IMG/VR virus record: IMGVR_UViG_3300043570_000565
Location: 1 to 54,717 of that record
Origin: a virus
Lineage: Duplodnaviria; Caudoviricetes
Length of the DNA stretch: 54,717 nucleotides
Direction: 5' to 3' (one strand)
A model generated the notes under the pieces. It saw nothing but the letters and a program-made list of their open reading frames with translations. It was not told where the DNA came from and made no database searches. How positions within the stretch are numbered: the stretch's first letter is position 1; each line of letters opens with the position of its first letter. The position numbers and the translations under genes were made by a program. Positions 18,608 through 44,709 of this stretch are shown piece by piece.

Positions 18608-21600
18608 ATGGAAGAACAACTATTAAAAGATTACGTAGCAACGTATTTAAATCCTAAGTATAATGGTGATTGGGATTTAGTTAATTCAAAGTTCCCTGAG
18701 TTATCTGGACTTGACAAGCAATTGTTAAAAGACTATGTAGCAACGTATACAAATCCAAAGTATAATGGAGATTGGGATGTGGTAAACTCAAAGTTCCCGG
18801 AACTATTCCCAGCAGGAGAAACTTCTTCCGAGCCAGTAAAAAAAAAAGATACGGTATCACCATTTGTGGATGGTGGTTCGGAGCTTACAAGATTTGATCC
18901 TGCAAGTGGGCAGGTTGTACAGGAGACTCCTGAGTTTGCCACATCTAAGCCTGAAGTAAAGATCCCTGAGCAGAAGCTACCTGCACGTACTGAGTTCCAA
19001 TACCAGCCTGGCAAGCCTTTGCCTGAGCAGAAGACAGCACCACTCCCTAAGTTTGTTGAGGATCAGTTATCCACTGTTAAACCAGAGCTTATAGGGAAGA
19101 CTGAAGAGAATGTTGTACCACAACTTAAGTATCAGTTCGGTCCACTAGGATTTAAGTTCGAGGAGACTAGAGCTGGAGATTACATGATGGCTACATCTCC
19201 ATCTGGAGAGTCTATTTATATTTCTTTAGACGTTGTAGATAACAAGGATAAGGAGATAGAAGCCAATAAGCTAAACGCATTTTTAAGAAAGGGTGCCACC
19301 ACTGTAAAGAACTTATCTACTCTACAGAAGCAATACACGGACGCTAATAAAAAGATTGTATCTCAGAAAGAACTTGATGAGTCTCTGGCAAGCATCAATG
19401 CAGAGGAGACCAAAATCATGGCAAGGAACGCTGAGTTTGTTAAGGCACAGAATAAACTAGAGGCAGAGAAAGCACAACTAGAAAGTGTTCCTGTACAGCA
19501 AAGAAACAATCCAGCTTACATTGCTAGAGTAAATGACTTTATTGAAAGAGCTGATCAGTTTAGTGGTGAGTTCCAGACATTCGTAAAAGATGCTGAAGAC
19601 TTATCAAAGAGAGGCCAGCAATTAAATAAGTCTATAGGCAAGTACACTGAGATGAAAGCAGAGCAAGGCACATGGTATGGTGCTGGTTTAAATGCATTTG
19701 CTAACAAGTCATACTATAATATGGCTAAGGGATTCACCGGACTTACTATTGATTTGCTAGGTGAGTTTCTTCCAAAAGAAGCCTTGATGAGTCAAGATGA
19801 TTACGAGAAAAACTTTGTTGATCAAGCCAAGAAGGAGGGTATAGCGATACCTGAAGGAGAGGATTTTGCTGATCTTACTAGCAAAATGGATGCAGAGACA
19901 ATCGCAAGGATTGAAAATAAGGTTAGGGACTTATCGAAGAAGATTGTCAAAGGAGATATGATGGAGTCCTTAGGAGTCACATCAGACATGATGATGAAGG
20001 CTAGTGGGGTTTCTCCAGAATACTATAAATCAATTGAGAATAATTTTGTAGGCGGTGCTTTACTTGGCACACTATCATCTATACCGGCAATGGCTGGTGG
20101 ATCATTAACAAGAACTGTATTAATGGGATCTCAAATATTGGGTGGTATAGATGAGGAGATGTCTAATGATCCTGCGTTTGAAGGGATATCAGAGAATGAG
20201 AAGTACCTTGTTAAGGGGCCAATAACAGTAGCTGTTGCCCTGCTTGAGAAGGCTGGATTAAGCAACTTATTAAATCAAAAAGGTTTCTTAAATGGATTGG
20301 TACTTAAGGCATTAGGAAAGGCTAGTGCAGGAGCGAGTTATAAAACTCTAGGTGGATTGATTAGTAATGAAATAGATAATGTTGCTGCTAGAGGTGCTTT
20401 GACATTAGGGGCTGGTTTCCTAGCTGAGGCTGAGACAGGTGCATTACAGGAGGTAGCTGACATCACGGCCAAAGAAATTTACAATATGGCTAAGGAGAAG
20501 GAGATGTTTGATACTCCTGATTCGGTAGTCCAATTCATAGAGCAGGTAGGCAAGGCTGGTTTACAAGAAGGTATTGGAGCTGGTGTACTTAGTGTCCCAG
20601 GATCTGTATCTGCTGCCTATACTGGTAAAGGATTCTTGGGAATGGACGATACTCAGTTTGCTATGTTTGAAAAGATGGCGAACGACTCAAACATTCAGAA
20701 GGGATTCGTTGCTAGGCTCAAGTCTAGAATTAATAACGGTGAGATTACTGCTGCTGAAGGCAAGGACATACTTAATAATTACAGAAATTCTGTAGGCTTA
20801 TTTAACTCATTACCTGAGAACCTTGACATGCAAGGTAAGAAGGAGGCGATGAATTTACTTAAGGAGAAGCGTGACTTGGAGCGTCAGATTGATGGCAAGG
20901 ATCAGGCATTAACTACTCCTCAGCGTAATAGAGTAAACGAAATAAATCAACAACTTACTAAACTATCAGAAGATGCCGTTCAAAAGCAAGCAGCAGGTGA
21001 AGTACCTGTACAGCCAGGAGCCACAGTTGGCCAAGAAGTGGCGCAAGGAGAACCCCAAGCAGAACCTCAAGGCATTGCCCAAGAAGGTCAAGAAGTAGTA
21101 AGCCCTACGTTAGACTTAGATGGAGAGGTATCCTTACTTGAGCAGTTACTTGCACAGGAGGAGACTGCACCTACTGTGTCCGCTGGTATATCAATCTCAA
21201 GTGATACTGATGTTGAGGAGTTGAGAAATAGAACTCAGTCAAGGTCTCAGCAGGCAACAACAAAAGAAGATAAGGAATCTTCTAGTACAAGGTTGAGTAT
21301 TATTGATACCGCTAAGAAGGCCATCAATACATTGAAGTCAGTGTTCCCTAATCTTGATATTGTGATGCATGAAGATGAAGGCAGCTACAATGCTTCTATG
21401 CAAGAGATAGGTGGGAGGGCTGGATCTAGAGGAAACTTCTTTACTGATACTGATCAAGATGGTAATACAACAGGTAGGATCGATATCAATCTATCTAAAG
21501 CTAACTCTAGAACAGTAGCTCATGAGATTGCTCATGGCATACTAATAAATACTTTTGGAGACAATGTAAACTTATTCAATGACTTTAGAACAAGGTTGTC

Positions 21601-24600
21601 TAAGGTCCTTAAGGGAGACGTAAACAAGAAGTTAAATGATTTTGCTAATCAGTATGTTGATAAAAAGACAGGTAAGTTATTAGATGTAAACCACGAGGAG
21701 TTCTTAGCTGAGCTTACTGGAGCACTAGAACAACAGGAGGCCAACTTGTCTGTAACTACAATTCAGAAAGTTGCTGCGTTAATTAATGAGTTTGTGTCTA
21801 AGATTACAGGGGGTAAGTTTACCCCATTTGAGGACATAAAGAATACCAAGGATGTAGTTGACTTCTTTAACACCATATCTGGTGCTATCAGAGAAGGTAA
21901 TCAGATACAACAACTAAATAGTCAAGAGCCATATACTTCAGGTGTAGCACTACCTGTAATTAATCCTAATGAATTTGTTGGTAAGAAGTTTAGATCTCAG
22001 CTTGAGATAGGTGATTATAAATTCCCCTCTGGCATAGACATTCTTAGAATAGCTGATCTTCCTATAAAGAATTTAACCGAATTGGTAAAGCAATATGAAG
22101 GTAAAGTTGTTATTATTACTAGTGATGCCACTGGATATGGTGTAGATAAAAATGGAGATCCTATCTTAGGTGGATTTGGATTTGCTTCAAACAAAAAGAA
22201 TGTTGATGATGGTATTGGATTCGCAAGTCTGGGGACTGGTACAGTAAGTGGTACTTATACAGCAGCTGATAAAGCTTATGGTACAGGAAAGACTCTTGTA
22301 CTAGTAATGATTCAACCACCTCATACAACAATTAATAATTCGTATGGTGCTAAGTATATTGTCAGAGGACTAAAAGAAATAGCTGCATCTTCTAAAGAGG
22401 AGTTAGCAAAAACCAAAGAGTCAATTAAGACCTTTATAAAAGATTCTACGGTTATTCAAGACGAATTAAAAAAGATTAAAGGATCAGAGAAAAGATTGTT
22501 TGATTTTATTGATAGCATAAATGAGAACACCAATATAGATGATGCTGTTAAAGAATTCCTAAATGATACTACTTTTACTGTAAGAAAATTACTTGGTCAG
22601 GGTATATTGTTTAAGAATAAAGATATAAGACCTGATTCAAGTACCACGTATAGTAAGATTGCATTTAATAATATTGGATATAATATCTATGATTTCTTAA
22701 AGGAGTATGGTGACAATACAATACTCACAGATGATTTAATACTAAATGATATTGGAGGATATGTTGTTGGTGGATTTGAATTAGATGTAGTTCCTAATGA
22801 TCAAAGAGAAAATATAATAAATGATATTCAAAACAAAGGTATAGTTCATCCATTATTCAACGCTAAACTTCCTGGCACTAATCACTTTAGATTAGATGCT
22901 CTTTATGATGTTGAAGAAAACTTTGCTCAGTACGCAGTACCTGATACTCAGATATCTATACCTAAAGAAGAGAGAGATGCTTTGGTAAGAGAACTTTACA
23001 AAGATGATAGATTCTACTTAGCTAAAAATAGATCTATACCTTTAGAAGAAAGGACATACACTCATCTAACTGTTCCAGCCAAAGTTGAATTTAAGGATAC
23101 GTATTTAAAACCTAGGGGACTACTAATTGAAACAGCTCCAAAAGTTTCAACAAAGGTAGCTAGAGGAGAAGGCTTTATCCCTATAGAAGGTGCCGCTGAA
23201 CAAATGGCGAAGAGAAATTTTGTAAGCAGATCACAGATAAATGAAGAGCTATCAAAGGCATCTGGATCAACACAAGTTGCAACTACAAAGGGCAGTTATA
23301 GAAAGGCTGCAAATATTTTAAAGAATATTGGTGTAGATGGTGAGGTCCTAGACTATGGAGCAGGGCTTGGATTAGGTACTGATGCCATGAGTGAGGTCCT
23401 TGATAAGCCTGTTGATTCATTAGAAATTAATCCAGAAAGATGGAAGGGAATTAGGCCAGTAAAATATACTGATGCCAATCAAATAGATAAGAAGTATGAT
23501 GGAATAGTATCCTTGAATGTAGTAAATGTAGTTCCAAAAGAAGTAAGGGACTTCATTGTTCTTGACATATTTAATAATCTTAAAGAAGGTGGAACTGCTA
23601 TTATAAGTTCAAGAGGATTTAAAGGAGACATTGATGGTGCTAAAAACTTTGTCGATGGAGGTGAAGAAAAAAGTTACATAATAAAAAAGAGAGAGAAGGG
23701 CAAATTTATTTATGTATTCCAAAAGGGATATGATGGTAATGAGTTGTTTGAATATGTTCAAGGTTTATTAGGAGACTCTGCATTAGTATTGCCTAACAAT
23801 ACATTCGGTAAAAGAGGAGTTGTAATAACTAAACTTAGCAATGTAAAAAGCAGATCTCAATTACCTGGCAATGATGCACAGAGAATAGTTAATCTAGGAC
23901 GTGCTAATGGTTTGTCTGATCAAGCGATATCAAATGTATTAGAGAAGCGTGGCTTCACTCAAGAAGCCATTGACACTGCAATAGGTAAGGCTGAGCCTGC
24001 CGCTAAGAAGGTTGAGGTAACTGAGGAGTTTGCTCCGGGGTATGACCGAATGATTGATGAGCTTGAGGGTGTGGTTGAGAAGTCATTAAATCGTGGTACC
24101 ACTGAGGATAGAGCAATGGAAAATGCCATAAACTATCTACAGGGTACTAAGGTATACGAGAACGCTACTGACGTACAGCGTGAGGCTATGGTCCGTGATG
24201 TACGTAAGCGATTCAAGAAGCGTGAGAAGCGTGCTCCTAGTGCTGAGAAGGTAGTAGGTAAGCCAAAGAAGAAGGAGGTTACTGTCGATGAGATGGTAGC
24301 ACTGAAGGACCAGATTAAGCTTGAGGCAAGAGCTGCTCGTGAAGCTAAGGGAGACCTTAATACCAAACGAAAAGCATTGGCTGCTAAGGTGTCTGCATTG
24401 AAGGGTAAGGGAACGGTTACTACTAACCAGCTTGATACTATTATAAGAAGGATTGAGAGAACTAATCTTGACAATCCTATCATGGTAGATAGGTTGCTTG
24501 CATACATTGAGAAGGTGTTTGATAATGCCAACTATGCAGCGGACATGGCTGAGTTAAGAAAGCTACAACGTCAGGCAAGAACCAAGAAGCATACATCAAT

Positions 24601-27600
24601 GAAGGACTTTGTTGATAGGTTTACTTTTATTAATCCAGAGCTTATCCCACTTGATAGACTACAAGACTACAAGGAAGCACTTGACTTCTTGAATAACCTA
24701 ACTCCTTCTTATGCTAGGATGAATGAGATGCTTCCTGAGATTGAATCTTATCAGGTATCTGAAGAGTTTGATGCAGCTAAGACCTTTGATGGTCTTATGA
24801 GTAAGTATGAAAGCATAGCATTGAATGAGGTTGGTAGTGTAGAGGATTATGTTAATTTAATAAAGGACATAAACTCATTTAAGAGAAAGGCATTTCAGTT
24901 ACTACAGAACGAAGCGATTACTCAGGAAGAATATGACAACCTAATTGATATGGTTGGAAAGGATCAGGCTGAGATAGAGAAGAGATATGAAAAAGAAATC
25001 ACTCAGATAAAGAAGGACTTGATTGCTGAGATAAAGAATCAGAGACCAAAGACTAATCCTGAATTCACTAAGGAAGAGAATGATTTAATCAAAGAATACC
25101 TAGAGCTTAGCGATGCTGACCTTGAGAGTCTATCTCCTGAGGACTTGTTTGTACTAAATGATTTGCTTGAGAACGTAAGCAATGGAGAGATTGACTACTA
25201 TAGATTTAAGAACGTAGTGTCAAAGGCAGCCAATAACAAGGCTGGTGTTGAAGTTGGTAAGCAGTTAAAAGCATCTAAGTTAAGTCTTGGGTCGGCAGAA
25301 TTGAGAAAGAAGATGGCTCAGTTTGAAAGCTCATTCTGGGAGGGGCTTCTTGGTTTAGGTAGAGCCACATCAGGTCCACTACAAAAGTTTATTATCTCTC
25401 CTTTCAATAGAGCAATTGGATCATACGAAAAGTTTTTAAGAGATGGATACAATGATTTCTTAAAGCTTAAGAAGAAGTATAAGATTGATGATTCTAAGTT
25501 TATAAAAAGCACTAAGCAAATGAGCAAGATTGGTATGCTAACCACATACCTTCAAGAGTACATGGCTCAGTTTGACCCTAAGAACAAAGGCATTAAGGAT
25601 ATCGGTAAGCGTGATTGGTTCAAGGAAATATTAGACACCGAAACCATGAGGGACGATTACTCCCCTGAAGAGCTTAAGATTATTGAAGAGATTCATAAGA
25701 GTCTACCTAAAGATAAGGATGGTAATGTAGATCCTAAGGCGGTATACGATAGCTACATAGCTAACGATGGTAAGTTCTTTACCAAGAATGAGAAGGGATT
25801 CTTTGATGCAGTAATGGAGTGGAAGAAGAATAACTCAACATCAAAGCAGAAGGCAGCTAATGAAATGAGTGGCAATGCATTTAAGGAGATTCCTTTTCAC
25901 ATGCTTAGATCAAGATACTCTGGCCAGACTTCACAGATTACCCCATCAACATCTGGTGATAATGGTATGATACGAATCAAGGCTGGTACCGGTAAGGAGA
26001 GAGCAAGCGAAGCAGTAGGTGCTATCAATACAAACTTTGAGAAGCTATTCATCAAAGGACTTGAGCAGACTGGAAGAGATTACTTCTTATCCAAGGCACT
26101 AAAGGATATCAACAACGTGTTGGCATCTGCTAAGAAAGAACTTAATGGAGATAAAGATCCGCTAGTTAAGGCTATATCTTATACGCTATCTGATGCATTA
26201 GCTTATGAGTTTAGTGATACAGCTAGTCAGAACATATTGAAGAGATTGGTTCAGGCAAGAGCTGCTATGACATTGTTCGATCCTATCAGAGCAGGAGTTG
26301 AATTTACATCTACTCTACTATCCTTTGGTCTAAGAGCCAGAACATTATCTGGATACAAGAACTTATTCGGTAGTCAGGGAGATATGAGAAATCTACTTGA
26401 GTTCACGGATAGCCCACTAAGACTACGTCAGAATATCAACAATGCAATTGATATCAATGATGGAAGGATAGAACCACAGGGGATGCTTACGAAGTGGACA
26501 ACATTCCTATCTGGTCTACCAGAAAGAACAATGATGGTTACCTCATGGATGCCAACATTCACTAGTGAGTTTCAGAATATCACGAAGGAGAAGTTTGACA
26601 TGAAGAAGTTTAATGATAGCGAAGCATACAGAGAGAAGTATGGTAAGGCAATCAAAGAAGCTTCTGCTGTGGCTGATGCTCAGACTGAGAAGATTATTGG
26701 TCCAACAACAAAGGCAGGACAGAGAAGAGACATTGTAATTTTCCCTGGTAAAACTGTTGGCAGGGACACGGTGTCTGGTCAAATCCTTGGCTTCTTTAGC
26801 AACTATCCTTATCGAGAAGTAACTGAATTTGTAAATGGATTTAAGGAAGCAGGTGAGGTATTAAAGAAAGGTGATACAGTAGAAGCAATCAGTCAGTTGC
26901 AAAAGCCACTGGGTATTGCATTGAACGTGGCTGCCTACGGATTCTTATCCTCAGTAGTATACGCATCCAGATTAATACTTCTTGGAGACGAGGATGAAGA
27001 GGAGAGAGGCAACAAGTTACTTGAGGAGTTGATGACTTCTAAAGGATTCATTGAGGAGACAGCGGCAAATGCAGCAGCATTAGCAGCAAGTAAGTACGCA
27101 GGTGGAGGTAGAGCTATGCTACAGGTGTTAGGCACTTTAGGTATGATGCTGACTGACAATGAGGAAACAAAGACTACAATTAAAAAGATGCTAAAGGGAA
27201 GTGTCTACGTAGATCCTCTACCTACTCAGAAGTTAAGTGGATATGGTACCGCAGATAAAGTAAATACAGCAATACTAAAATACATTCCTCAGCTTGTGGT
27301 GCTTGGAAATATAATTATAGATGGTATTGGGGCTATTAACGAAGTTAAAGCTATATACGACAAGGTAGAAAGCAAAGGAGTGAATGCACTAACAGAAGAT
27401 GAGGAGCTAAGAGTATTAGCATTGAGTGCAATGTTTACAGCAACTCAATTGTACTTAAATTATAAGGGAACATCATTACCATCTTACAACACCTTGAAGG
27501 CAGGAATGAAAACAGTAAAGGAGGAAGCAGGAGTCGCTGATATATCTGCTGGAAAAGTACCTGCCAAAAAGAAATCATCTAGTGGTGGTGGAGGTGGTAG

Positions 27601-27772
27601 AGCTAAGACAATGAACAAGACTGACTTGAAGAAATATAACCGTGAGTTATATGATCAGATGTATGGATCTGGGTCTGCTACTTATGAGATAGAGCAGGAG
27701 ATAAAAGCATTCGAGAAGGAACAACGAGAATTTAAAAAGGATATCAAGGATAGAGTTTTTGGTGGGGACTAA
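18608..27772 (+). CDS. Giant polyvalent ejection protein (zincin-like HExxH domain and class I SAM-dependent methyltransferase domain)
   Basis: 3054 aa; HEIAH at 21521-21535 with downstream HEEFLAE; VLDYGAGLG...YDGIVSLNVVNV...LKEGG at ~23345-23600; last gene of the virion operon. Confidence 0.7.
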   Translation: MEEQLLKDYVATYLNPKYNGDWDLVNSKFPELSGLDKQLLKDYVATYTNPKYNGDWDVVNSKFPELFPAGETSSEPVKKKDTVSPFVDGGSELTRFDPASGQVVQETPEFATSKPEVKIPEQKLPARTEFQYQPGKPLPEQKTAPLPKFVEDQLSTVKPELIGKTEENVVPQLKYQFGPLGFKFEETRAGDYMMATSPSGESIYISLDVVDNKDKEIEANKLNAFLRKGATTVKNLSTLQKQYTDANKKIVSQKELDESLASINAEETKIMARNAEFVKAQNKLEAEKAQLESVPVQQRNNPAYIARVNDFIERADQFSGEFQTFVKDAEDLSKRGQQLNKSIGKYTEMKAEQGTWYGAGLNAFANKSYYNMAKGFTGLTIDLLGEFLPKEALMSQDDYEKNFVDQAKKEGIAIPEGEDFADLTSKMDAETIARIENKVRDLSKKIVKGDMMESLGVTSDMMMKASGVSPEYYKSIENNFVGGALLGTLSSIPAMAGGSLTRTVLMGSQILGGIDEEMSNDPAFEGISENEKYLVKGPITVAVALLEKAGLSNLLNQKGFLNGLVLKALGKASAGASYKTLGGLISNEIDNVAARGALTLGAGFLAEAETGALQEVADITAKEIYNMAKEKEMFDTPDSVVQFIEQVGKAGLQEGIGAGVLSVPGSVSAAYTGKGFLGMDDTQFAMFEKMANDSNIQKGFVARLKSRINNGEITAAEGKDILNNYRNSVGLFNSLPENLDMQGKKEAMNLLKEKRDLERQIDGKDQALTTPQRNRVNEINQQLTKLSEDAVQKQAAGEVPVQPGATVGQEVAQGEPQAEPQGIAQEGQEVVSPTLDLDGEVSLLEQLLAQEETAPTVSAGISISSDTDVEELRNRTQSRSQQATTKEDKESSSTRLSIIDTAKKAINTLKSVFPNLDIVMHEDEGSYNASMQEIGGRAGSRGNFFTDTDQDGNTTGRIDINLSKANSRTVAHEIAHGILINTFGDNVNLFNDFRTRLSKVLKGDVNKKLNDFANQYVDKKTGKLLDVNHEEFLAELTGALEQQEANLSVTTIQKVAALINEFVSKITGGKFTPFEDIKNTKDVVDFFNTISGAIREGNQIQQLNSQEPYTSGVALPVINPNEFVGKKFRSQLEIGDYKFPSGIDILRIADLPIKNLTELVKQYEGKVVIITSDATGYGVDKNGDPILGGFGFASNKKNVDDGIGFASLGTGTVSGTYTAADKAYGTGKTLVLVMIQPPHTTINNSYGAKYIVRGLKEIAASSKEELAKTKESIKTFIKDSTVIQDELKKIKGSEKRLFDFIDSINENTNIDDAVKEFLNDTTFTVRKLLGQGILFKNKDIRPDSSTTYSKIAFNNIGYNIYDFLKEYGDNTILTDDLILNDIGGYVVGGFELDVVPNDQRENIINDIQNKGIVHPLFNAKLPGTNHFRLDALYDVEENFAQYAVPDTQISIPKEERDALVRELYKDDRFYLAKNRSIPLEERTYTHLTVPAKVEFKDTYLKPRGLLIETAPKVSTKVARGEGFIPIEGAAEQMAKRNFVSRSQINEELSKASGSTQVATTKGSYRKAANILKNIGVDGEVLDYGAGLGLGTDAMSEVLDKPVDSLEINPERWKGIRPVKYTDANQIDKKYDGIVSLNVVNVVPKEVRDFIVLDIFNNLKEGGTAIISSRGFKGDIDGAKNFVDGGEEKSYIIKKREKGKFIYVFQKGYDGNELFEYVQGLLGDSALVLPNNTFGKRGVVITKLSNVKSRSQLPGNDAQRIVNLGRANGLSDQAISNVLEKRGFTQEAIDTAIGKAEPAAKKVEVTEEFAPGYDRMIDELEGVVEKSLNRGTTEDRAMENAINYLQGTKVYENATDVQREAMVRDVRKRFKKREKRAPSAEKVVGKPKKKEVTVDEMVALKDQIKLEARAAREAKGDLNTKRKALAAKVSALKGKGTVTTNQLDTIIRRIERTNLDNPIMVDRLLAYIEKVFDNANYAADMAELRKLQRQARTKKHTSMKDFVDRFTFINPELIPLDRLQDYKEALDFLNNLTPSYARMNEMLPEIESYQVSEEFDAAKTFDGLMSKYESIALNEVGSVEDYVNLIKDINSFKRKAFQLLQNEAITQEEYDNLIDMVGKDQAEIEKRYEKEITQIKKDLIAEIKNQRPKTNPEFTKEENDLIKEYLELSDADLESLSPEDLFVLNDLLENVSNGEIDYYRFKNVVSKAANNKAGVEVGKQLKASKLSLGSAELRKKMAQFESSFWEGLLGLGRATSGPLQKFIISPFNRAIGSYEKFLRDGYNDFLKLKKKYKIDDSKFIKSTKQMSKIGMLTTYLQEYMAQFDPKNKGIKDIGKRDWFKEILDTETMRDDYSPEELKIIEEIHKSLPKDKDGNVDPKAVYDSYIANDGKFFTKNEKGFFDAVMEWKKNNSTSKQKAANEMSGNAFKEIPFHMLRSRYSGQTSQITPSTSGDNGMIRIKAGTGKERASEAVGAINTNFEKLFIKGLEQTGRDYFLSKALKDINNVLASAKKELNGDKDPLVKAISYTLSDALAYEFSDTASQNILKRLVQARAAMTLFDPIRAGVEFTSTLLSFGLRARTLSGYKNLFGSQGDMRNLLEFTDSPLRLRQNINNAIDINDGRIEPQGMLTKWTTFLSGLPERTMMVTSWMPTFTSEFQNITKEKFDMKKFNDSEAYREKYGKAIKEASAVADAQTEKIIGPTTKAGQRRDIVIFPGKTVGRDTVSGQILGFFSNYPYREVTEFVNGFKEAGEVLKKGDTVEAISQLQKPLGIALNVAAYGFLSSVVYASRLILLGDEDEEERGNKLLEELMTSKGFIEETAANAAALAASKYAGGGRAMLQVLGTLGMMLTDNEETKTTIKKMLKGSVYVDPLPTQKLSGYGTADKVNTAILKYIPQLVVLGNIIIDGIGAINEVKAIYDKVESKGVNALTEDEELRVLALSAMFTATQLYLNYKGTSLPSYNTLKAGMKTVKEEAGVADISAGKVPAKKKSSSGGGGGRAKTMNKTDLKKYNRELYDQMYGSGSATYEIEQEIKAFEKEQREFKKDIKDRVFGGD
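18617..18805 (+). repeat. N-terminal tandem repeat with a 34-aa (102-nt) period in the giant protein
   Basis: QLLKDYVATYxNPKYNGDWDxVNSKFPEL occurs twice. Confidence 0.9.
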
Positions 27773-39556: not shown

Positions 39557-39720
39557 AACTTTTCTTTTATTGTGTTGTATAATAAATCTAAACCATACCT
39601 TGTCAATCCATTTGTCTTGAATGGATATGCAATCCATAAATCTTCAGAGGAAATAATTCTATTCTGAGTTGTTAAAATTTGCACAATCCAATCATAGGAT
39701 TCGCTTAATCTTTTGTCCAT
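39553..39720 (-). CDS. Hypothetical 55-aa protein
   Basis: MDKRLSESYDWIVQ...; fills the gap between neighbouring genes. Confidence 0.5.
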   Translation of the reverse strand: MDKRLSESYDWIVQILTTQNRIISSEDLWIAYPFKTNGLTRYGLDLLYNTIKEKL

Positions 39721-39724
39721 AGTA

Positions 39725-40432
39725 TTAGTGTTCTAAGATTTGAATATTTGTTTTACCTTTTCTCATTCCGCTACATAGTCCACATTTCTCACATGTAGAT
39801 TTGTATCCCATTTCTTTACTGGCAGGACATTGGACTGCATTTTCAATCTTATTTTTTACTGCCATGAATGACCTGTATCCTAGTTTTTTAGCCATTTCTG
39901 ATTGGCCATCACTATGTGTACTTGCCATGAAGTACTTATGGTACTCAGGCTTTCTTGCCCATTGATGCGTGTATCCTGTATGTGATTTGGATAGACCAAT
40001 CATGTTGGATACCATGTCAATTGGAATCAAAGATGGCTCACCATATGTACCAAATCTGATGTACCTATCTTTGGACATCTTCATGACCTTTGTCCAGACA
40101 TCATCCAAGCTAGGGATTTCTTTGTCTTTGAACTCCTTTACCAGACTTTTAAACATGGAACAGAATCCTGCATACTGCTCGTACTTATGTGTATAGCATT
40201 TCAGATATCCTCTGAATGGGCAGTCAAAACAGACTGCATCCGCTAGGTCAAAGAACTCTTTAGGAATCATCTTCTCACCATTGGAATACTTTTTACTGGC
40301 GTACTCCAATTGTGATTTGCTGAATGAATAAACTTGCAAGATTTTTTCTTTGCCAGATGTTATCTTGCCATTGGTACTTTTGTCCAATCGGAATACAATA
40401 ATTGCATCCTTGATTTGTGCAGTTACTCTCAT
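39725..40432 (-). CDS. Cys-rich phage Gp88-like / radical-SAM-like protein
   Basis: CFDCP...CY, IRFGTYGEP, TGYTHQW, FMAS and CPA...TCEKCGLC motifs. Confidence 0.55.
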   Translation of the reverse strand: MRVTAQIKDAIIVFRLDKSTNGKITSGKEKILQVYSFSKSQLEYASKKYSNGEKMIPKEFFDLADAVCFDCPFRGYLKCYTHKYEQYAGFCSMFKSLVKEFKDKEIPSLDDVWTKVMKMSKDRYIRFGTYGEPSLIPIDMVSNMIGLSKSHTGYTHQWARKPEYHKYFMASTHSDGQSEMAKKLGYRSFMAVKNKIENAVQCPASKEMGYKSTCEKCGLCSGMRKGKTNIQILEH

Positions 40433-40453
40433 TTTTTTTGGGGTTTAAGTTTG

Positions 40454-40497
40454 AGACCATGGCAGAAATCGAATCTGCCTGTACTCCAAGATGGTCT
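40454..40497 (-). ncRNA. Minimal tRNA-like element (acceptor stem plus T arm)
   Basis: AGACCAT-CTTGGAGTACA-GGCAGA-TTCGATT-TCTGCC-ATGGTCT; canonical T-loop; intergenic. Confidence 0.6.
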
Positions 40498-40708
40498 AGA
40501 TATTATTTTGGTAGCAAAAGTTATCAAAGTATGCATCCTCGTTTGCTTTGATGTGAGCGAAAGTCTGGTTTGCTTCCTTTCTATCTCTGTATGCTTTTGA
40601 TGATTCGCAGTATGCTTTGCCATCGTAGTAGATGGATTCACCTTTGCCAATTACCTTGCCTGTCTCGGCACAATTGCTTTTGAATCTAGATGTAATAAAT
40701 CGTCCCAT
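40496..40708 (-). CDS. Small protein with Zn-finger-like Cys pattern
   Basis: SNCAETGKVIGKGESIYY...YCE. Confidence 0.6.
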   Translation of the reverse strand: MGRFITSRFKSNCAETGKVIGKGESIYYDGKAYCESSKAYRDRKEANQTFAHIKANEDAYFDNFCYQNNI

Positions 40709-40709
40709 G

Positions 40710-40868
40710 TTATTTCCAAATTTTAGTTAGTATTACAATTGAGAATGCTACATAAACTTTCATTATCAATAGTACTACAGCATCGTCTATTGATATTATC
40801 CATAATGCTCCCATTACCCATAGGTAAGCAATTAAAAAATTCGATAAGTAATTATATGCTTTTGTCAT
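40710..40868 (-). CDS. 52-aa 2-TM membrane peptide
   Basis: MTKAYNYLSNFLIAYLWVMGALWIISIDDAVVLLIMKVYVAFSIVILTKIWK. Confidence 0.55.
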   Translation of the reverse strand: MTKAYNYLSNFLIAYLWVMGALWIISIDDAVVLLIMKVYVAFSIVILTKIWK

Positions 40869-40870
40869 TT

Positions 40871-40960
40871 TTATAGTAGTTTAAGTCCAAGCATGTATCC
40901 AAGTATAAATATTGGGAGTAATGCCACAATCGTGTAGATAATTAATCCTAATGTTCTCAT
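40871..40960 (-). CDS. 29-aa single-TM peptide
   Basis: MRTLGLIIYTIVALLPIFILGYMLGLKLL. Confidence 0.55.
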   Translation of the reverse strand: MRTLGLIIYTIVALLPIFILGYMLGLKLL

Positions 40961-40961
40961 G

Positions 40962-41081
40962 TTAGTAGGTGTTTGATATGTAGAAACTTTTTTCCAATTG
41001 TACTCCATAAAGAAGTCCAATTACTATGATTACTACCATTATCCCAATGGCAAGTAGTGTTCCTTTTGTGTTGCTGTTCAT
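40962..41081 (-). CDS. 39-aa single-TM peptide
   Basis: MNSNTKGTLLAIGIMVVIIVIGLLYGVQLEKSFYISNTY; A-rich start context. Confidence 0.55.
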   Translation of the reverse strand: MNSNTKGTLLAIGIMVVIIVIGLLYGVQLEKSFYISNTY

Positions 41082-41108
41082 CTTGTTTTAGTTTAGGGTT
41101 AAAGTTTG

Positions 41109-41149
41109 TTCCATGTCGCAATCGAATGCCACATCCTAGATGCATGGAA
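41109..41149 (-). ncRNA. Second minimal tRNA-like element
   Basis: TTCCATG-CATCTAGGATG-TGGCA-TTCGAT-TGCGA-CATGGAA; followed by CAAACTT like the 40454 element. Confidence 0.5.
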
Positions 41150-41163
41150 TGTATACTATTTTC

Positions 41164-41409
41164 TTACCAGTCTATTTCAATCATTACTTTCTCCAACAAT
41201 CTAGATGGCTTGATGTCATTCTCTAAGCATAGGTTGAATACAAATAGTAAGCAATCTACCTTCTTTTTTGGTGCTTCTGGGAATACTTCTCTGAATTTTG
41301 TGAATGGGTTATAGTTACCCAAATTGGTATTGTACTTGTAGTTCATTACCATTTCTCCTTGAATTGCAGTAAACCATAATGCGTTCACTTCTTTTTGTAC
41401 TAATGCCAT
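41164..41409 (-). CDS. Early protein (81 aa)
   Basis: Likely start MALVQKEV at 41409, after AAAAAACACAAAACT. Confidence 0.65.
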   Translation of the reverse strand: MALVQKEVNALWFTAIQGEMVMNYKYNTNLGNYNPFTKFREVFPEAPKKKVDCLLFVFNLCLENDIKPSRLLEKVMIEIDW

Positions 41410-41424
41410 AGTTTTGTGTTTTTT

Positions 41425-41478
41425 GGTTAAGACCAATCCGTAGATTGGTTTCGTCTATTCAAGACTCGTCAGTTAACC
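41425..41478 (-). ncRNA. Hammerhead ribozyme, type I
   Basis: GGUUAA-CUGACGA-GUCU(UGAAU)AGAC-GAAA-CCAAUC(UACG)GAUUGG-UC-UUAACC. All core nucleotides and three stems are present; GUC cleavage site at 41431/41430. Confidence 0.9.
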
Positions 41479-41721
41479 TTTGATCGCTTCCAATATTTCT
41501 TCCAATTGGGATCTCATTGATGTAGCATTACCTTGGATTCCAAAGTAGTTTTTAACATCTGAGATCTTCCATCTGCTATGTGGTTTCATTCCAAACTCAT
41601 AAAGTTTTAGATCCCTTATTGATACAATTAAATTGTACCATCCTCTATTCGTTCCATTGGTCTCCTTAATAAGATCAGCATAGAATTGGCTTTGTCCGTT
41701 GATAATTTGCTTGGTGTTCAT
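41473..41721 (-). CDS. First early gene, hypothetical protein
   Basis: 82 aa; first ORF of the minus-strand operon. Confidence 0.7.
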   Translation of the reverse strand: MNTKQIINGQSQFYADLIKETNGTNRGWYNLIVSIRDLKLYEFGMKPHSRWKISDVKNYFGIQGNATSMRSQLEEILEAIKG

Positions 41722-41934
41722 AGTGTATGTTGTTTTAGTGGTTTTGCTTATTGCATGTACAATATTAAATCATTTCTAGTTCATAATCTAATACTCGTTC
41801 AATTTATTTTCATTATTGAATAACATTTTATGTAAGTGATTGATAATCAGCGACATTAATTTTATTGTGGATCTTATATATTATTTGTTCGTACAATCTG
41901 GGTGATGGGGATAAAGCAAAAGATCATGGCATGT

Positions 41935-41977
41935 GATCTCCTGGTGTTGGATCTCCTGGGGATGATCTCCTGGGGAT
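41935..41977 (+). repeat. Three direct copies of GATCTCCTGG
   Basis: Copies at 41935, 41950 and 41964; GATCTCCTGGGGAT occurs twice in tandem. Confidence 0.85.
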
Positions 41978-42239
41978 CTTTCTCTATGCATTGACTATGA
42001 GTCAAGTTTATCTGGAAGGAATGTAGCTAGGTAGATCATGGAAGGAAGGATAAGCTAGGGCATAGGTGTTCGCAATGGCTGGCCATGGCCATGTCATGCA
42101 GTCCCTAGCAAAAAGCCAAAAAATCCGAGGGGATCGGAGATCATGCCTACCCCCCATGCCGAAAAAAAAATCGTTTCCGGTTCGGGCCGGCTGTCGTAAT
42201 TTGGTGGTATTACCCAACCACTCCTATCATCTAAAGTAT

Positions 42240-42247
42240 TATATTTG
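42240..42247 (+). promoter_or_regulatory. -7 box (TATATTTG)
   Basis: Matches TAnnTTTG. Confidence 0.65.
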
Positions 42248-42250
42248 TGC

Positions 42251-42448
42251 ATGATTGATGGACTAACAATGAAGAACGGTCGTTTGATAAATGATCGTCC
42301 TAACAGCGTAACAGGAATTCAAAAGGCTATCGATATTAAGAGAACCTTGAAGAAAGCAGAGAAGCTTGAGATGTATTCTGAAGCTGTGTCGCTAGGTATT
42401 CAGAGAGCAGGCAATGACGATAACATCAGAGGGATGTTCTTGAAGTAG
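42251..42448 (+). CDS. Hypothetical protein
   Basis: ATG at 42251 just after TATATTTG; followed by a terminator. Confidence 0.6.
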   Translation: MIDGLTMKNGRLINDRPNSVTGIQKAIDIKRTLKKAEKLEMYSEAVSLGIQRAGNDDNIRGMFLK

Positions 42449-43107: not shown

Positions 43108-44709
43108 ATGGAACCTAAAGATTTATTTTTCGCCCAGGAGGGCAGGCTAAAGTTAATCTCTGGCATCAAGAAGATTGCTGGAGCGGTCAAGAGTACGTTG
43201 GGGCCATATGGCAACACAGTACTAATTGAGAGTCCTAATCACACGCATGGTATTACTGTAACTAAGGATGGGGTGACTGTCGCTAAGGCTGTTGACCTGA
43301 TTGACCCTGTGGAGAACCTTGCTGTGAAGATGATGAAGGAGGCGGCTGATAGAACGGCTACTGCTGCTGGTGATGGCACGACTACTGCCATAGTGTTGAC
43401 AGAGGGGTTGGTGCTTGGATGGTTGGAGCACATTGGCACTGAGCAGTTAAATAACACTGAGGTGCTGCGCAACATATCTGAGCTGAGTTCAAAAGTGATT
43501 GAGGGGTTGAAGAGGAAGGGCAAGAAGGTGACTAACTCAATGCTGCTTGACGTAGCGACTATCTCTGCGAACAATGACAGTCACATAGGTCGGATCATTG
43601 CTGATGTGTACAAGGAGGTGGGGAAGAATGGCATAGTAACGGTGGAGCGAAGCCAGACTGCTGACACGTATGCTGAGACCACTAGAGGGTTAAAGATTGA
43701 CAGGGGTTACACAAGCCCACTGTTCATCAACGATCAGAGTAGGGACGAGTGCGTGTTTGAGGATGTGCTGGTGCTGGTGGCTGACATTGAGATAAGTAAT
43801 GTGTTGCAGATTGAGAACGTGCTGAAGCCAATCATCCAGGAGGGGAAGAAGCTACTGATCGTATCGCCATGCCACGTGAACGTGGTGAACACCTTGGCGG
43901 CAAACGTGATGAAGAGTAACCTAAAGATGTGCGTGGTTCAACCACCTAGCTTCGGGTACCGACAGCATGAGCTGATGCAGGACCTGGCGGTGAGTGTTGG
44001 GGCAACATACTTCAGTGAGAAGACCGGGGATGACCTGAGTCAAATTACTATTGCTGACCTAGGGCATGCAGCCAGAGTAGTGGTTGGCAAGGACAAGACC
44101 ATCATACTCAAGAGTGACCTCAAGCTCGACACAGTAAAGATTGAAGAGAGGGTACAGCAGCTATGGCAGGCGCATAAGATTGCTAAGAAGAAGGCTGACA
44201 AGGACCATCTGTTGGAGCGAATCGCCTCCCTTACGGGAGGGATAGGTGTGATATACGTAGGTGGGCAGACTGACCTGGAGCAGAAGGAGCTGTACGACCG
44301 TGTTGATGATGCGGTGTGTGCGGTACGATCCGCTCTGGAGGAGGGCATACTACCAGGTGCAGGCAAGGCATTGCTTGACGAGAGTGCAGCACTCATTCCT
44401 ACTGGCAGCTTTCACTATAGCCCTGAGCTGAGTGTGGCGATTAAGATCCTATCCAATGCGATGATGGCACCATTCCAGCAGATCCTAGCAAACGCTGGGC
44501 TCAAGCCTAGTGACGTGTACAAGGAGGCGATGCCTGTGGGGCATGGGTACAACCTAAAGACTGGACAGATGGGTGACCTGATTAAGATGGGTGTGATTGA
44601 CCCGTTGAAGGTGACACGCAGTGCGTTGCAGAACGCTGTGAGTGTAGCGACAACTATATTGAGCACTAACGCCATCATAACTATGGCACGATCATACGAG
44701 ACCAGATAA
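43108..44709 (+). CDS. groEL: Chaperonin GroEL (phage-encoded)
   Basis: TLGPYG, TKDGVTVAK, AGDGTTTA, DRGY, ALEEGILPGAG and GVIDPLKVTRSALQNA motifs; no GGM tail. Confidence 0.95.
   Translation: MEPKDLFFAQEGRLKLISGIKKIAGAVKSTLGPYGNTVLIESPNHTHGITVTKDGVTVAKAVDLIDPVENLAVKMMKEAADRTATAAGDGTTTAIVLTEGLVLGWLEHIGTEQLNNTEVLRNISELSSKVIEGLKRKGKKVTNSMLLDVATISANNDSHIGRIIADVYKEVGKNGIVTVERSQTADTYAETTRGLKIDRGYTSPLFINDQSRDECVFEDVLVLVADIEISNVLQIENVLKPIIQEGKKLLIVSPCHVNVVNTLAANVMKSNLKMCVVQPPSFGYRQHELMQDLAVSVGATYFSEKTGDDLSQITIADLGHAARVVVGKDKTIILKSDLKLDTVKIEERVQQLWQAHKIAKKKADKDHLLERIASLTGGIGVIYVGGQTDLEQKELYDRVDDAVCAVRSALEEGILPGAGKALLDESAALIPTGSFHYSPELSVAIKILSNAMMAPFQQILANAGLKPSDVYKEAMPVGHGYNLKTGQMGDLIKMGVIDPLKVTRSALQNAVSVATTILSTNAIITMARSYETR

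Follow-up and report, generated by a model that had tools for sequence, protein, structure and literature searches.

In true tRNAs the T-arm, with its UUCGANU loop, is stacked coaxially on the acceptor stem and the 3′ strand continues without a break, and in the tRNA punctuation of mitochondria the tRNAs sit between the genes of a polycistronic transcript. The PeSL cassettes of T4-type phages, which consist of a promoter and a simple hairpin, are located upstream of small genes in a hypervariable region.

Hammerhead ribozymes flanking genes of phages were described in 2011 (Perreault et al. 2011, PMC3088659). In the sections of that paper drawn on here, clustered prophage hammerheads cleave in vitro and are proposed to process polycistronic RNA, and in haloviruses HF1 and HF2 a hammerhead lies 13 nt before a start codon with a transcript 5′ end mapped beside the cleavage site (PMC3088659). 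What purpose the thousands of hammerheads in phage genomes serve has been a standing question since then, and a 2019 review, in the part drawn on here, still calls their function elusive (PMC6765202). In plant mitochondria, according to the excerpted text of Forner et al. 2007 (PMC1920247), t-elements are taken to direct the cleavages by RNase Z and RNase P from which mRNA ends arise, and the cox1 5′ end was shown to form beside such an element.

The window analyzed here is a stretch of 54,717 nt from a lake-water phage of the Caudoviricetes (IMG/VR record IMGVR_UViG_3300043570_000565). An earlier note on this DNA had placed a structured RNA in every sizeable gap among the first seven genes, which it took to be early. 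Within this phage that description holds: the gaps between genes 1 and 2 (63 nt), genes 2 and 3 (82 nt) and genes 6 and 7 (63 nt) contain, respectively, a hammerhead (41478-41425) and two small tRNA-like elements, e1 (41149-41109) and e2 (40497-40454), all on the minus strand, which is the gene strand, and all where the note had put them. Elsewhere among the first seven ORFs, neighboring genes are 1-2 nt apart. Beyond this phage the description fails, as relatives are often without an element at the same junctions: those having a gene 7 that is 60-67% identical have none before gene 7, and L026 has none before the homologues of genes 3 and 6. Hence, the elements are dispensable at those junctions. 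The note was also right that two of the three elements overlap the upstream stop codon. The last codon and stop of gene 1 (41473-41721, minus strand; 82 aa, no PHROG or Pfam match), GGT TAA, are the 5′ strand of hammerhead stem I, and the stop codon TAG (40498-40496) of gene 6 (40496-40708, minus strand; 70 aa) overlaps acceptor bases 1-2 of e2, whereas the stop codon upstream of e1 lies 14 nt before the element. The start codons that follow the three elements are ATG 41409 (gene 2), ATG 41081 (the gene after e1) and ATG 40432 (gene 7, 235 aa). A blastn search with positions 39700-42300 against named phages gave no match. The capsid gene is shared with phages of Flavobacterium, Cellulophaga or Maribacter.

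Read on the minus strand, the 41478-41425 segment is composed of GGUUAA (5′ strand of stem I), CUGACGA, GUCU-UGAAU-AGAC (stem II and its loop), GAA, ACCAAUC-UACG-GAUUGGU (stem III and its loop), C, and UUAACC (3′ strand of stem I). The catalytic core (41472-41425, minus strand) is complete: C3 U4 G5 A6 N7 G8 A9, G12 A13 A14, the A15.1-U16.1 pair and H17, here C17, are all present; stems II and III each end in a loop, and stem I is open. Folding by minimum free energy gives the three-way junction, with a z-score of -3.1 and none of 200 shuffles as good, and the hammerhead descriptor found a single site in the window, this one, versus one in 300 shuffled windows. Judged by its sequence, the segment is a genuine, complete type I hammerhead, as had been claimed, and is predicted to cut itself between C41431 and U41430. 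Such cleavage would leave a 21-nt leader, UUAACCAAAAAACACAAAACU (41410-41430, minus strand), on the gene 2 message. No Rfam model matched anywhere in the window at gathering thresholds. The best Rfam match of the hammerhead in a search of 40300-41900 at E ≤10 was RAGATH-1-hammerhead (RF03152), at 26.9 bits versus a gathering score of 56.3; the ribozyme thus scores below the cutoff although its sequence features are all present, the model being short and stem I minimal. No tertiary contact of loop II with stem I was identified. Given this and a stem I of only 6 bp, fast cleavage in the cell is not assured.

By its sequence the ribozyme belongs to a very large phage family having the fixed stem I GGUUAA/UUAACC. 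A pattern scan of the viral collection gave 128 loci, from 17 of its 64 parts. In the DNA searched the family has 139 unique copies, both stems being intact in 119 of these, with 97 distinct stem III strands; N7 is U in 78 copies, C in 45, A in 13 and G in 3, and H17 is C in 111 and A in 28. The distance from the 3′ end of the ribozyme to the next ATG is 12-20 nt in 107 of 130 copies. Close relatives (L026, and L027 and L153 with two copies each) carry hammerheads of this type that differ in stems II and III, both of which covary among the hammerhead relatives, and loop II in this subfamily is 5 nt, UNAAU or UNAGU. Scores against RF00163 in L161 and L204 were 29.5-30.5 versus a threshold of 34. 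The hammerhead part of the finding is ordinary; what gives the finding weight is the mini-tRNA family, where e2 counts for more than e1.

Element e2 (40454-40497, minus strand) reads AGACCAU, CUUGGAGUACA, GGCAGA-UUCGAUU-UCUGCC and AUGGUCU, which is a 7-bp acceptor stem closed by its first and last segments, an 11-nt linker that includes UGG, and a 6-bp T-stem (GGCAGA/UCUGCC) with the loop UUCGAUU. Its 3′ strand is unbroken, UCUGCC of the T-stem running straight into AUGGUCU of the acceptor. A discriminator C and a 20-nt leader (AAACUUAAACCCCAAAAAAA; together 40433-40453, minus strand) then precede the gene 7 start codon. The loop fits UUCRANY, with an A-U closing pair rather than G53-C61. Relatives of e2, found by way of the neighboring gene, keep both helices through compensatory changes. 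In an 11-row alignment six of the seven acceptor pairs changed on both sides, with 97.4% of cells paired, and all six T-stem pairs covary. The closest relatives do not keep the T-loop sequence; they have AUCGUUU in place of UUCGAUU and hence are without the U54-A58 pair of a T-loop. Covariance model R1 gave e2 a score of 57.5 bits, e2 itself being one of the training rows. We consider e2 a well-supported mimic, at the level of sequence, of the acceptor stem and T-arm of a tRNA.

The mini-tRNA family extends beyond these close relatives to unrelated phage contigs, where compensatory changes likewise preserve both helices. Over the whole 11-row alignment 97.9% of cells were paired, versus 38-47% when the partner strand was slid, and 12 of 13 pairs changed on both sides; five of the rows came from a descriptor that demands pairing, so that part of the covariation arises by selection, and the independent rows (the window, L004, L027, L153, L154 and L003) are close relatives. 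Element e1 and the L167 element were left out of alignment A2 because MAFFT misaligned their 5′ halves with respect to the e2 type. A strict acceptor plus T-arm descriptor gave 22 distinct matches in 683 kb of loci versus 0-6 in five shuffles, and was used in place of a loose descriptor dropped as uninformative (469 matches versus 355 in a shuffle). Model R1 found four further elements at E <0.05 in hammerhead-bearing loci (two in L235, one each in L200 and L214), all on the hammerhead strand, and in unrelated viral loci (196 kb) it gave a single match, at E 0.34; L167-type elements were unmatched at E ≤1. A fifth new R1 match (E 0.039) falls on the other strand of L235, where it overlaps a hammerhead read in reverse complement, and was taken as spurious. 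UGG is found in all 13 tabulated linkers, although the descriptor did not demand it, UCG in every loop (the invariant T26, C27 and G28 of the alignment), and 17 of 22 elements have C as their discriminator. All nine elements checked lie on the strand of the hammerhead and the genes.

The longer relative in L167 has a 7-bp acceptor stem on which a T-arm of textbook form, UAGGG-UUCGAGU-CCCUA, is stacked; L167, L166 and L234 combine a canonical T-arm with an extra covarying hairpin, and in L164, L205, L167, L204 and L032 the T-loop has the full consensus and is closed by a G-C pair. Elements of the 43-45-nt class stack 13 bp, and those of L167, L204 and L032 stack 12 bp. A class with a 10-nt linker (L182, L205, L197 and L235) has a small hairpin between element and leader. 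None of these elements is called a tRNA by any tool, and they do not form a cloverleaf with a D-arm and an anticodon arm. ARAGORN found no tRNA genes in the window or in 18 loci, and the Rfam tRNA model did not match the elements at E ≤10 (40300-41900) or at E ≤1 in 10 loci. Real tRNAs are also present in some of these phage regions (L164 and L228).

Element e1 (41109-41149, minus strand) departs from this pattern. Its closing stem is UUCCAUG/CAUGGAA (7 bp, or 6 bp if the terminal G and C are not counted), its linker GCAUCUAGGAU, and its T-stem GUGGCA/UGCGAC, which contains a G.G mismatch and stacks on the acceptor only if that mismatch is allowed; the loop is the 6-nt UUCGAU, or UUCGAU(U). 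The fold z-score is -1.2, with 24 of 200 shuffles as good, and R1 left e1 unmatched even with filters off at E ≤10. An astrovirus frameshift-site model of Rfam gave a chance match that overlaps e1 on the opposite strand (40300-41900, E ≤10). The element nevertheless recurs. A 100% identical copy is found in L002/L022 in a different gene context with both flanks differing, and a 36-nt core with four differences is present with unrelated flanks in contigs of four lake runs, a comparison that left out the low-confidence joint from 40460 to 40890. Element e1 thus appears from its sequence to be conserved, yet is only a degenerate fit to a mini-tRNA. The earlier note had described T-arm mimicry for both elements and had proposed covariance models as a check on it. 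On both counts the outcome was divided: e2 has the acceptor stem and T-arm, its helices covary and the model built finds further elements, but e1 has no proper T-arm and is not matched by that model.

The claim of a shared tail was upheld for both elements, each having C and AAACUU(U/A)AACCC on its 3′ side, ahead of an A-rich leader. After e1 the discriminator C and tail AAACUUUAACCC occupy 41096-41108 (minus strand), and the A-rich leader and the start codon come next. The window contains exactly two perfect matches to CAAACTTWAACCC, and eight with ≤2 mismatches versus 2.58 expected. The tail that follows e1 is also found 3′ of e2-type and L167-type elements. In the L002/L022 phage the 17-nt GGAACAAACTTTAACCC occurs twice, flanking an extra gene, and in L022 this tail also stands alone ahead of a gene, without a hairpin. 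In pattern scans for the tail, ATGG..CAAACTTWAACC gave 116 loci of which three (L054, L098 and L147) are true elements, the others being chance matches in coding DNA; TTCGATT..CAAACTTWAACCC gave L002 plus one chance match and nothing else. The e2-type pattern was found in four viral and two metagenome stretches, all close relatives, and the L167-type pattern in four stretches bearing one identical element.

Hammerheads and mini-tRNAs occur together in L153, L027, L167, L161, L164, L182, L205, L197, L235, L200 and L214, and they may occupy the same slot. Homologous downstream proteins are preceded by a mini-tRNA in L153 and L027 and by a hammerhead in L161, and a second gene family has the same replacement ahead of homologues in L182 versus L254. 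The leaders predicted to follow the cuts are alike in length at 21 nt (hammerhead), 20 nt (e2) and 26 nt (e1). A shared slot and replacement ahead of homologous genes are most simply explained by a shared cutting function.

Given these data our preferred reading, to which we assign a probability of roughly 0.55, is that the leftward operon gives a long message containing two kinds of cis-acting cutting modules located about 20 nt before start codons. The small genes would be transcribed leftward as one such message. The hammerhead would cut itself after C41431, the gene 1 message retaining the folded ribozyme at its 3′ end and gene 2 being left with an A-rich leader that starts with a 5′-OH. 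Element e2, and probably the decayed e1 as well, would imitate the top half of a tRNA, the acceptor stem stacked on the T-arm, and the GG of the linker could dock on UC(G) of the loop as a D-loop does. Host tRNA-trimming enzymes would recognize this shape. The key cut would be of the RNase Z type, made just past the discriminator C, so that the structure would stay on the upstream message and the downstream gene would receive its 20-nt (e2) or 26-nt (e1) leader, a geometry like that of the hammerhead. RNase P could also cut at the 5′ side, which at e2 would fall inside the gene 6 stop codon UAG. That cutting occurs, which enzyme performs it and how expression is timed are what we infer in this reading.

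The behavior of e1 allows a narrower reading, which we find rather unlikely, in which the hammerhead and e2 alone are functional and e1 is a mini-tRNA remnant so decayed that it is no longer folded or processed, persisting since its tail and leader serve the downstream gene. Its mismatched T-stem and short loop, its invisibility to R1 and a fold no better than that of many shuffles would all be expected of a remnant, as would the tail that stands without a hairpin in L022. A remnant would not, however, be expected to remain fully identical where both flanks have changed, and the recurrence of its core in the four lake runs implies selection on the element itself. Even intact mini-tRNAs need not be cut sites. 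They could be landing pads for a CCA-adding enzyme, a modification enzyme, an elongation factor or a phage protein, caps that stabilize the upstream message at its 3′ end or the downstream message at its 5′ end, or decoys released against host defenses that target tRNA. It is the conserved structure, and not cutting, that is seen from sequence, the hairpin that follows the 10-nt-linker elements resembles a stabilizer, and the retention of loop UCG and linker UGG even where the T-loop consensus is lost fits a sequence-specific partner. We nonetheless regard such roles as improbable, because the elements share their slot with self-cleaving ribozymes and replace these ahead of homologous genes. 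Moreover, no candidate binding protein is linked to the elements, the neighboring genes being variable, and without an anticodon arm they cannot be decoys for anticodon nucleases.

A role at the level of DNA, either as PeSL-like recombination hot spots or as N4-like hairpin promoters for a phage RNA polymerase, would account for the gene shuffling seen around the elements. The small-gene set is entirely different between phages whose gene 7 is 94% identical, the borders of the elements are the points where similarity between phages breaks, and the identical e1 precedes a different gene in the other phage, the one in which the repeated GGAACAAACTTTAACCC flanks an extra gene. The phage also encodes a 3054-aa virion protein of unassigned family. 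This giant protein, however, matches no solved polymerase: it had no PHROG match, a Pfam methyltransferase match below threshold and no PDB sequence match, and thus the idea of a virion polymerase acting at N4-like hairpin promoters is unsupported. The Bacteroidota promoter consensus was not seen around the elements. Neither a promoter nor a recombination site would need a T-loop sequence, a GG linker, a fixed 7 + 6 bp stack or a discriminator C; one of the pairs is G-U, which in the opposite strand would read as a C-A mismatch, and the strand bias of the elements (nine of nine on the hammerhead and gene strand) argues likewise for RNA. As the stems covary freely, it is pairing and not sequence that is under selection. 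The shuffling may be a by-product of having repeated RNA modules, which leaves room for an RNA function, and we consider a DNA-level role very unlikely.

Returning to the cutting reading, the presence of a mimic in the hammerhead slot, sometimes before homologous genes, points to plain RNA cutting as the selected function, the outcome being a short leader of about 20 nt before the start codon. Somewhat more tentatively, and with a little less than even confidence, we suggest that many unrelated phages share a set of interchangeable punctuation modules, located about 20 nt before start codons: type I and type III hammerheads, twister, real tRNAs, and an undescribed 40-45-nt mini-tRNA that would hijack host RNase Z or RNase P while keeping only the acceptor/T-arm stack and the GG of the D-loop. 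If a substrate of host enzymes does replace a ribozyme, then phage hammerheads would serve simply to make a defined short A-rich mRNA 5′ end for every gene, and the upstream message would keep the structured module as a cap at its 3′ end. For RNase Z or RNase P the 40-45-nt element would, in addition, be a minimal substrate of natural origin, and it could serve as a compact processing tag in multi-gene constructs.

The novelty that the earlier note claimed for the combination was overstated, since clustered phage hammerheads are already in print (PMC3088659). A search for papers on mini-tRNA elements in phage operons, judged on titles and the starts of abstracts, found none. In the sections of the 2011 paper drawn on here, the phage hammerheads resemble those of this family in having the full consensus core, in occurring as several copies per operon and in flanking single varied genes, and for them too a role in dividing long phage transcripts into mRNAs of gene length was proposed (PMC3088659). 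In contrast to that set, the present ribozymes are of type I with a fixed 6-bp stem I and a 5-nt loop II and score below the Rfam thresholds, and those sections make no mention of tRNA-like elements in hammerhead slots. The core, stem III and cleavage site of RAGATH-1 (RF03152) align with those of the window ribozyme, but the extra 5′ hairpin of that model does not form here (non-standard pairs are marked) and stem II is a regular 4 bp rather than reduced.

The likeness to PeSL lies in short repeated intergenic modules that precede small genes without assigned function, the genes between the modules differing from phage to phage, although here the modules are ribozymes or tRNA-shaped RNAs without a recognizable promoter. 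With true tRNAs and mitochondrial punctuation the mini-tRNAs share the stack with its unbroken 3′ strand, the UUCGANU loop and the intergenic position; they differ from a true tRNA in lacking the anticodon arm, D-stem and CCA, and in a stack of 13 bp (in the 43-45-nt class) versus 12 bp. Among the systems compared, the t-elements of plant mitochondria are, as far as the excerpted account goes, the closest known case (PMC1920247). These are also tRNA-like without tRNA function, have a conserved T-arm and lie at mRNA 5′ or 3′ ends, but they are imperfect cloverleaves of about 70 nt in an organelle. The phage elements are 39-58 nt, lack both D-arm and anticodon arm (the L167 type may have a small hairpin), and alternate with ribozymes at positions about 20-35 nt before a start codon.

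The virus record of 54,717 bases carries a plus-strand block of structural genes (portal, capsid and a 3054-aa protein without known family) and a long minus-strand, leftward block with helicase, primase and recombination genes. For its capsid protein, identity is 72% to an uncultured spring-water phage and 48-55% to podophages of Flavobacterium, Cellulophaga and Maribacter. The elements considered here lie on the minus strand, where the leftward block starts and just inside a divergent non-coding region of 1.4 kb, among small genes that matched no PHROG or Pfam family and that, from their position, we guess to be early. The first seven minus-strand ORFs are separated by junctions of 1-2 nt except for three gaps of 63, 82 and 63 nt, which hold a hammerhead (41478-41425, between genes 1 and 2), element e1 (41149-41109, between genes 2 and 3) and element e2 (40497-40454, between genes 6 and 7).

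Several other features of the record deserve mention. The 3054-aa ORF (18608-27772, plus strand), at the end of the structural block, had no PHROG match and no PDB sequence match, and its sole Pfam match, a methyltransferase, was sub-threshold. A GroEL-type chaperonin gene lies at 43108-44709 on the plus strand (phrog_5725, E 1.4e-132). A non-coding block of about 150 nt (42090-42250, minus-strand reading) is almost invariant in five phages while its surroundings vary; its counterparts are at L003 1085-1260, L022 476-650 and around 3750-4005 in L026 and L027 (L-numbers denote other phage contigs or loci compared with the window). The block runs from TTGGGTAATACCACCAAATTACGACAGCCGGCCC through CGGAAACGA, a T-run and CGGCATGGGGGGTAGGCATG to GATTTTTTGGCTTTT, and includes a small GC hairpin that precedes a T-run. 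Upstream of the first leftward gene, GATCTCCTGG(GG) occurs as three direct repeats (41925-41975), and the aligned place in L026 and L027 holds two repeats of another word, GATATCCACAAG; both sets look like phage-specific operator or iteron sites.

The earlier note had placed a hammerhead in the first gap, and it is complete there, with core, stems and cleavage-site C. The order is GGUUAA, CUGACGA, a 4-bp stem II, GAA, a 7-bp stem III (first pair A-U), the cleavage-site C and UUAACC. The minimum-free-energy fold is the exact three-way junction (0 of 200 shuffles were as good), and a descriptor of core plus three stems matched the window once, here, and 300 shuffled windows once in total. Rfam at gathering scores did not report the hammerhead; the top match was the RAGATH-1 hammerhead (26.9 bits versus 56.3), whose extra hairpin is absent here.

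The ribozyme is a member of a very large family in phages. In the corresponding region of three close relatives there are hammerheads of this type, one or two per phage, with stem I unchanged and stems II and III different but still paired. When 17 of the 64 parts of the viral collection had been scanned, the pattern of stem I plus core had matched at least 128 loci, a single locus holding up to five copies. The collected loci gave 139 unique copies. Stems II and III are uninterrupted in 119 of them, with 97 distinct stem III strands and 35 distinct stem II strands. In 107 of 130 distinct copies the distance from the ribozyme to the first ATG behind it is 12-20 nt; the ribozyme is therefore a module of the gene's 5' leader. 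Perreault et al. (2011) describe single prophage genes flanked by multiple hammerheads, three such arrangements that cleave in vitro and, in a halovirus, a hammerhead that precedes a start codon by 13 nt and has a mapped 5' end; they propose processing of long phage transcripts (PMC3088659). The hammerhead arrangement itself is already published. A 2019 review still treats the purpose of phage hammerheads as unresolved (PMC6765202).

The other two gaps contain the 41- and 44-nt elements that had been described as tRNA mimics. Behind each come C, AAACUU(U/A)AACCC and a leader rich in A; the only perfect matches to the 13-mer tail in the window are these two. Element e2 is a mini tRNA-like element (mini-tRNA) made of an acceptor stem plus T-arm. 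It is kept, with compensatory changes, in relatives found via the neighboring 235-aa gene 7 (88-94% identical): the inner stem GGCAGA/UCUGCC becomes GAGGGA/UCCCUC or AGGGGA/UCCCCU and the outer A-U pair becomes G-C. The loop in these closest relatives is not a T-loop, and e2 is missing from relatives in which the 235-aa gene is 60-67% identical. A longer version was met among the hammerhead-bearing loci in an unrelated contig, L167, 230 nt upstream of a hammerhead. It has a 7-bp ACUGCCG/CGGCAGU stem, the e2-type linker CUUGGAG, an extra small hairpin and UAGGG-UUCGAGU-CCCUA, which is a textbook T-arm continuous with the outer stem's 3' strand.

A strict descriptor (a perfect 7-bp stem, a contiguous perfect 5-6-bp stem and the 7-nt loop WUCGWNN) gave 22 distinct matches in 683 kb of collected loci; five shuffles gave 0, 3, 3, 4 and 6. 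Two of the 22 are real or likely tRNAs (L228; L164 132-214), a few others seem to be chance matches, and about 12 are built alike (7 bp, linker of 10-12 nt, 6 bp, loop of 7 nt, then 6 and 7 nt). In an alignment of 11 such elements 97.9% of cells are paired versus 38-47% with the partner slid 1-3 columns, and 12 of the 13 pairs change on both sides; this covariation is partly built in because five of the 11 rows came from a filter demanding pairing. The filter did not demand the UGG found in all tabulated linkers (13 of 13 elements), the C directly after the stem (17 of 22) or location on the hammerhead strand of the same locus (9 of 9 checked). A covariance model trained on these 11 rows found four further elements in hammerhead-bearing loci (L235 twice, L200 and L214; E 8e-5 to 0.05) and, in 196 kb of unrelated viral loci, one match only (E 0.34). 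We regard a fifth new match (E 0.039) as spurious; it is on the opposite strand in L235, where it overlaps a hammerhead read in reverse complement. No Rfam family, the tRNA model included, matched the elements and ARAGORN called none a tRNA; unlike tRNAs, they lack CCA after the stem, and the main class has a helical stack of 13 bp. In the 10-nt-linker class (L182, L205, L197 and L235) the discriminator C, the base directly 3' of the acceptor stem, is followed by U plus a 4-6-bp hairpin and then the A-rich leader; this hairpin could be a 5' stabilizer of the downstream message.

The case for e1 is weaker. It can be read like e2 (with UUCCAU/AUGGAA as acceptor, GCAUCUAGGAU as linker, GUGGCA/UGCGAC as T-stem and UUCGAU as loop) if a G.G mismatch and a 6-nt loop are allowed. 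The covariance model did not match it even without filters and 24 of 200 shuffles fold as well. In another phage an identical e1 precedes a different gene and has different flanks on both sides, and a 36-nt core with four differences recurs between unrelated sequences in contigs of four lake runs; by such comparison e1 is conserved as a unit. In L022 the 17-nt GGAACAAACTTTAACCC is a direct repeat (1496-1512 and 1711-1727) flanking an extra gene absent from the window. The first copy is the e1 3' end plus tail and the second is the last codons and stop of the extra gene, which encodes about 70 aa from an ATG (82 aa in the ORF list, from a GTG inside e1).

Mini-tRNAs share their regions with real tRNAs, with type III hammerheads and with a sub-threshold twister. 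The sub-threshold matches, all in loci with a GGUUAA hammerhead and a mini-tRNA, are a type-P1 twister (L164 2745-2809, minus strand; 47.5 bits versus 67.2) and type III hammerheads at L197 4223-4277 (plus strand; 48.4 bits versus 48.5) and L205 2042-2099 (plus strand; 42.0 bits versus 48.5). In L157 and L237 about 60 conserved nucleotides, from GGGTTAAACTTGAATCCGTGT to CTTAACC and upstream of CTTAACCATAAA, occupy the usual hammerhead place before the gene leader without a CUGANGA core, and may be another kind of module.

Both hammerhead and mini-tRNA modules directly precede a gene leader, and homologous proteins are encoded downstream of either: behind a mini-tRNA in L153 and L027 and a hammerhead in L161, with the same contrast between L182 and L254 (36-55% identity; E 1e-11 to 2e-14, small database). 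Homologous genes behind either module point to one shared job, RNA cutting. Hammerhead cleavage would leave gene 2 with 21 nt before its AUG, and a cut behind the discriminator C would leave 20 nt to gene 7 (e2) and 26 nt to gene 3 (e1); for both module types the folded part would remain on the upstream message. This leader geometry points to an RNase Z-type position for the mini-tRNA cut. A look-up of sequencing runs containing this phage listed no RNA run. An RNase P cut is also conceivable; at e2-type elements it would split the upstream stop codon between U and AG, giving a message that lacks one. The modules may additionally act as recombination points, because the gene set of the region is hypervariable among relatives and one relative has the 17-nt e1-tail piece on both sides of its extra gene. 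A point of caution is that, when relatives are compared, a given junction may or may not carry an element.

A literature search covering titles and the starts of abstracts found no mini-tRNA family alternating with ribozymes in phage operons. The closest precedent is the t-elements of plant mitochondria, which are tRNA-like, have a conserved T-arm and lie at mRNA ends (PMC1920247). The t-elements are considered to guide RNase Z and RNase P, and the cox1 5' end was shown experimentally (PMC1920247), whereas the phage cutting is predicted from sequence.
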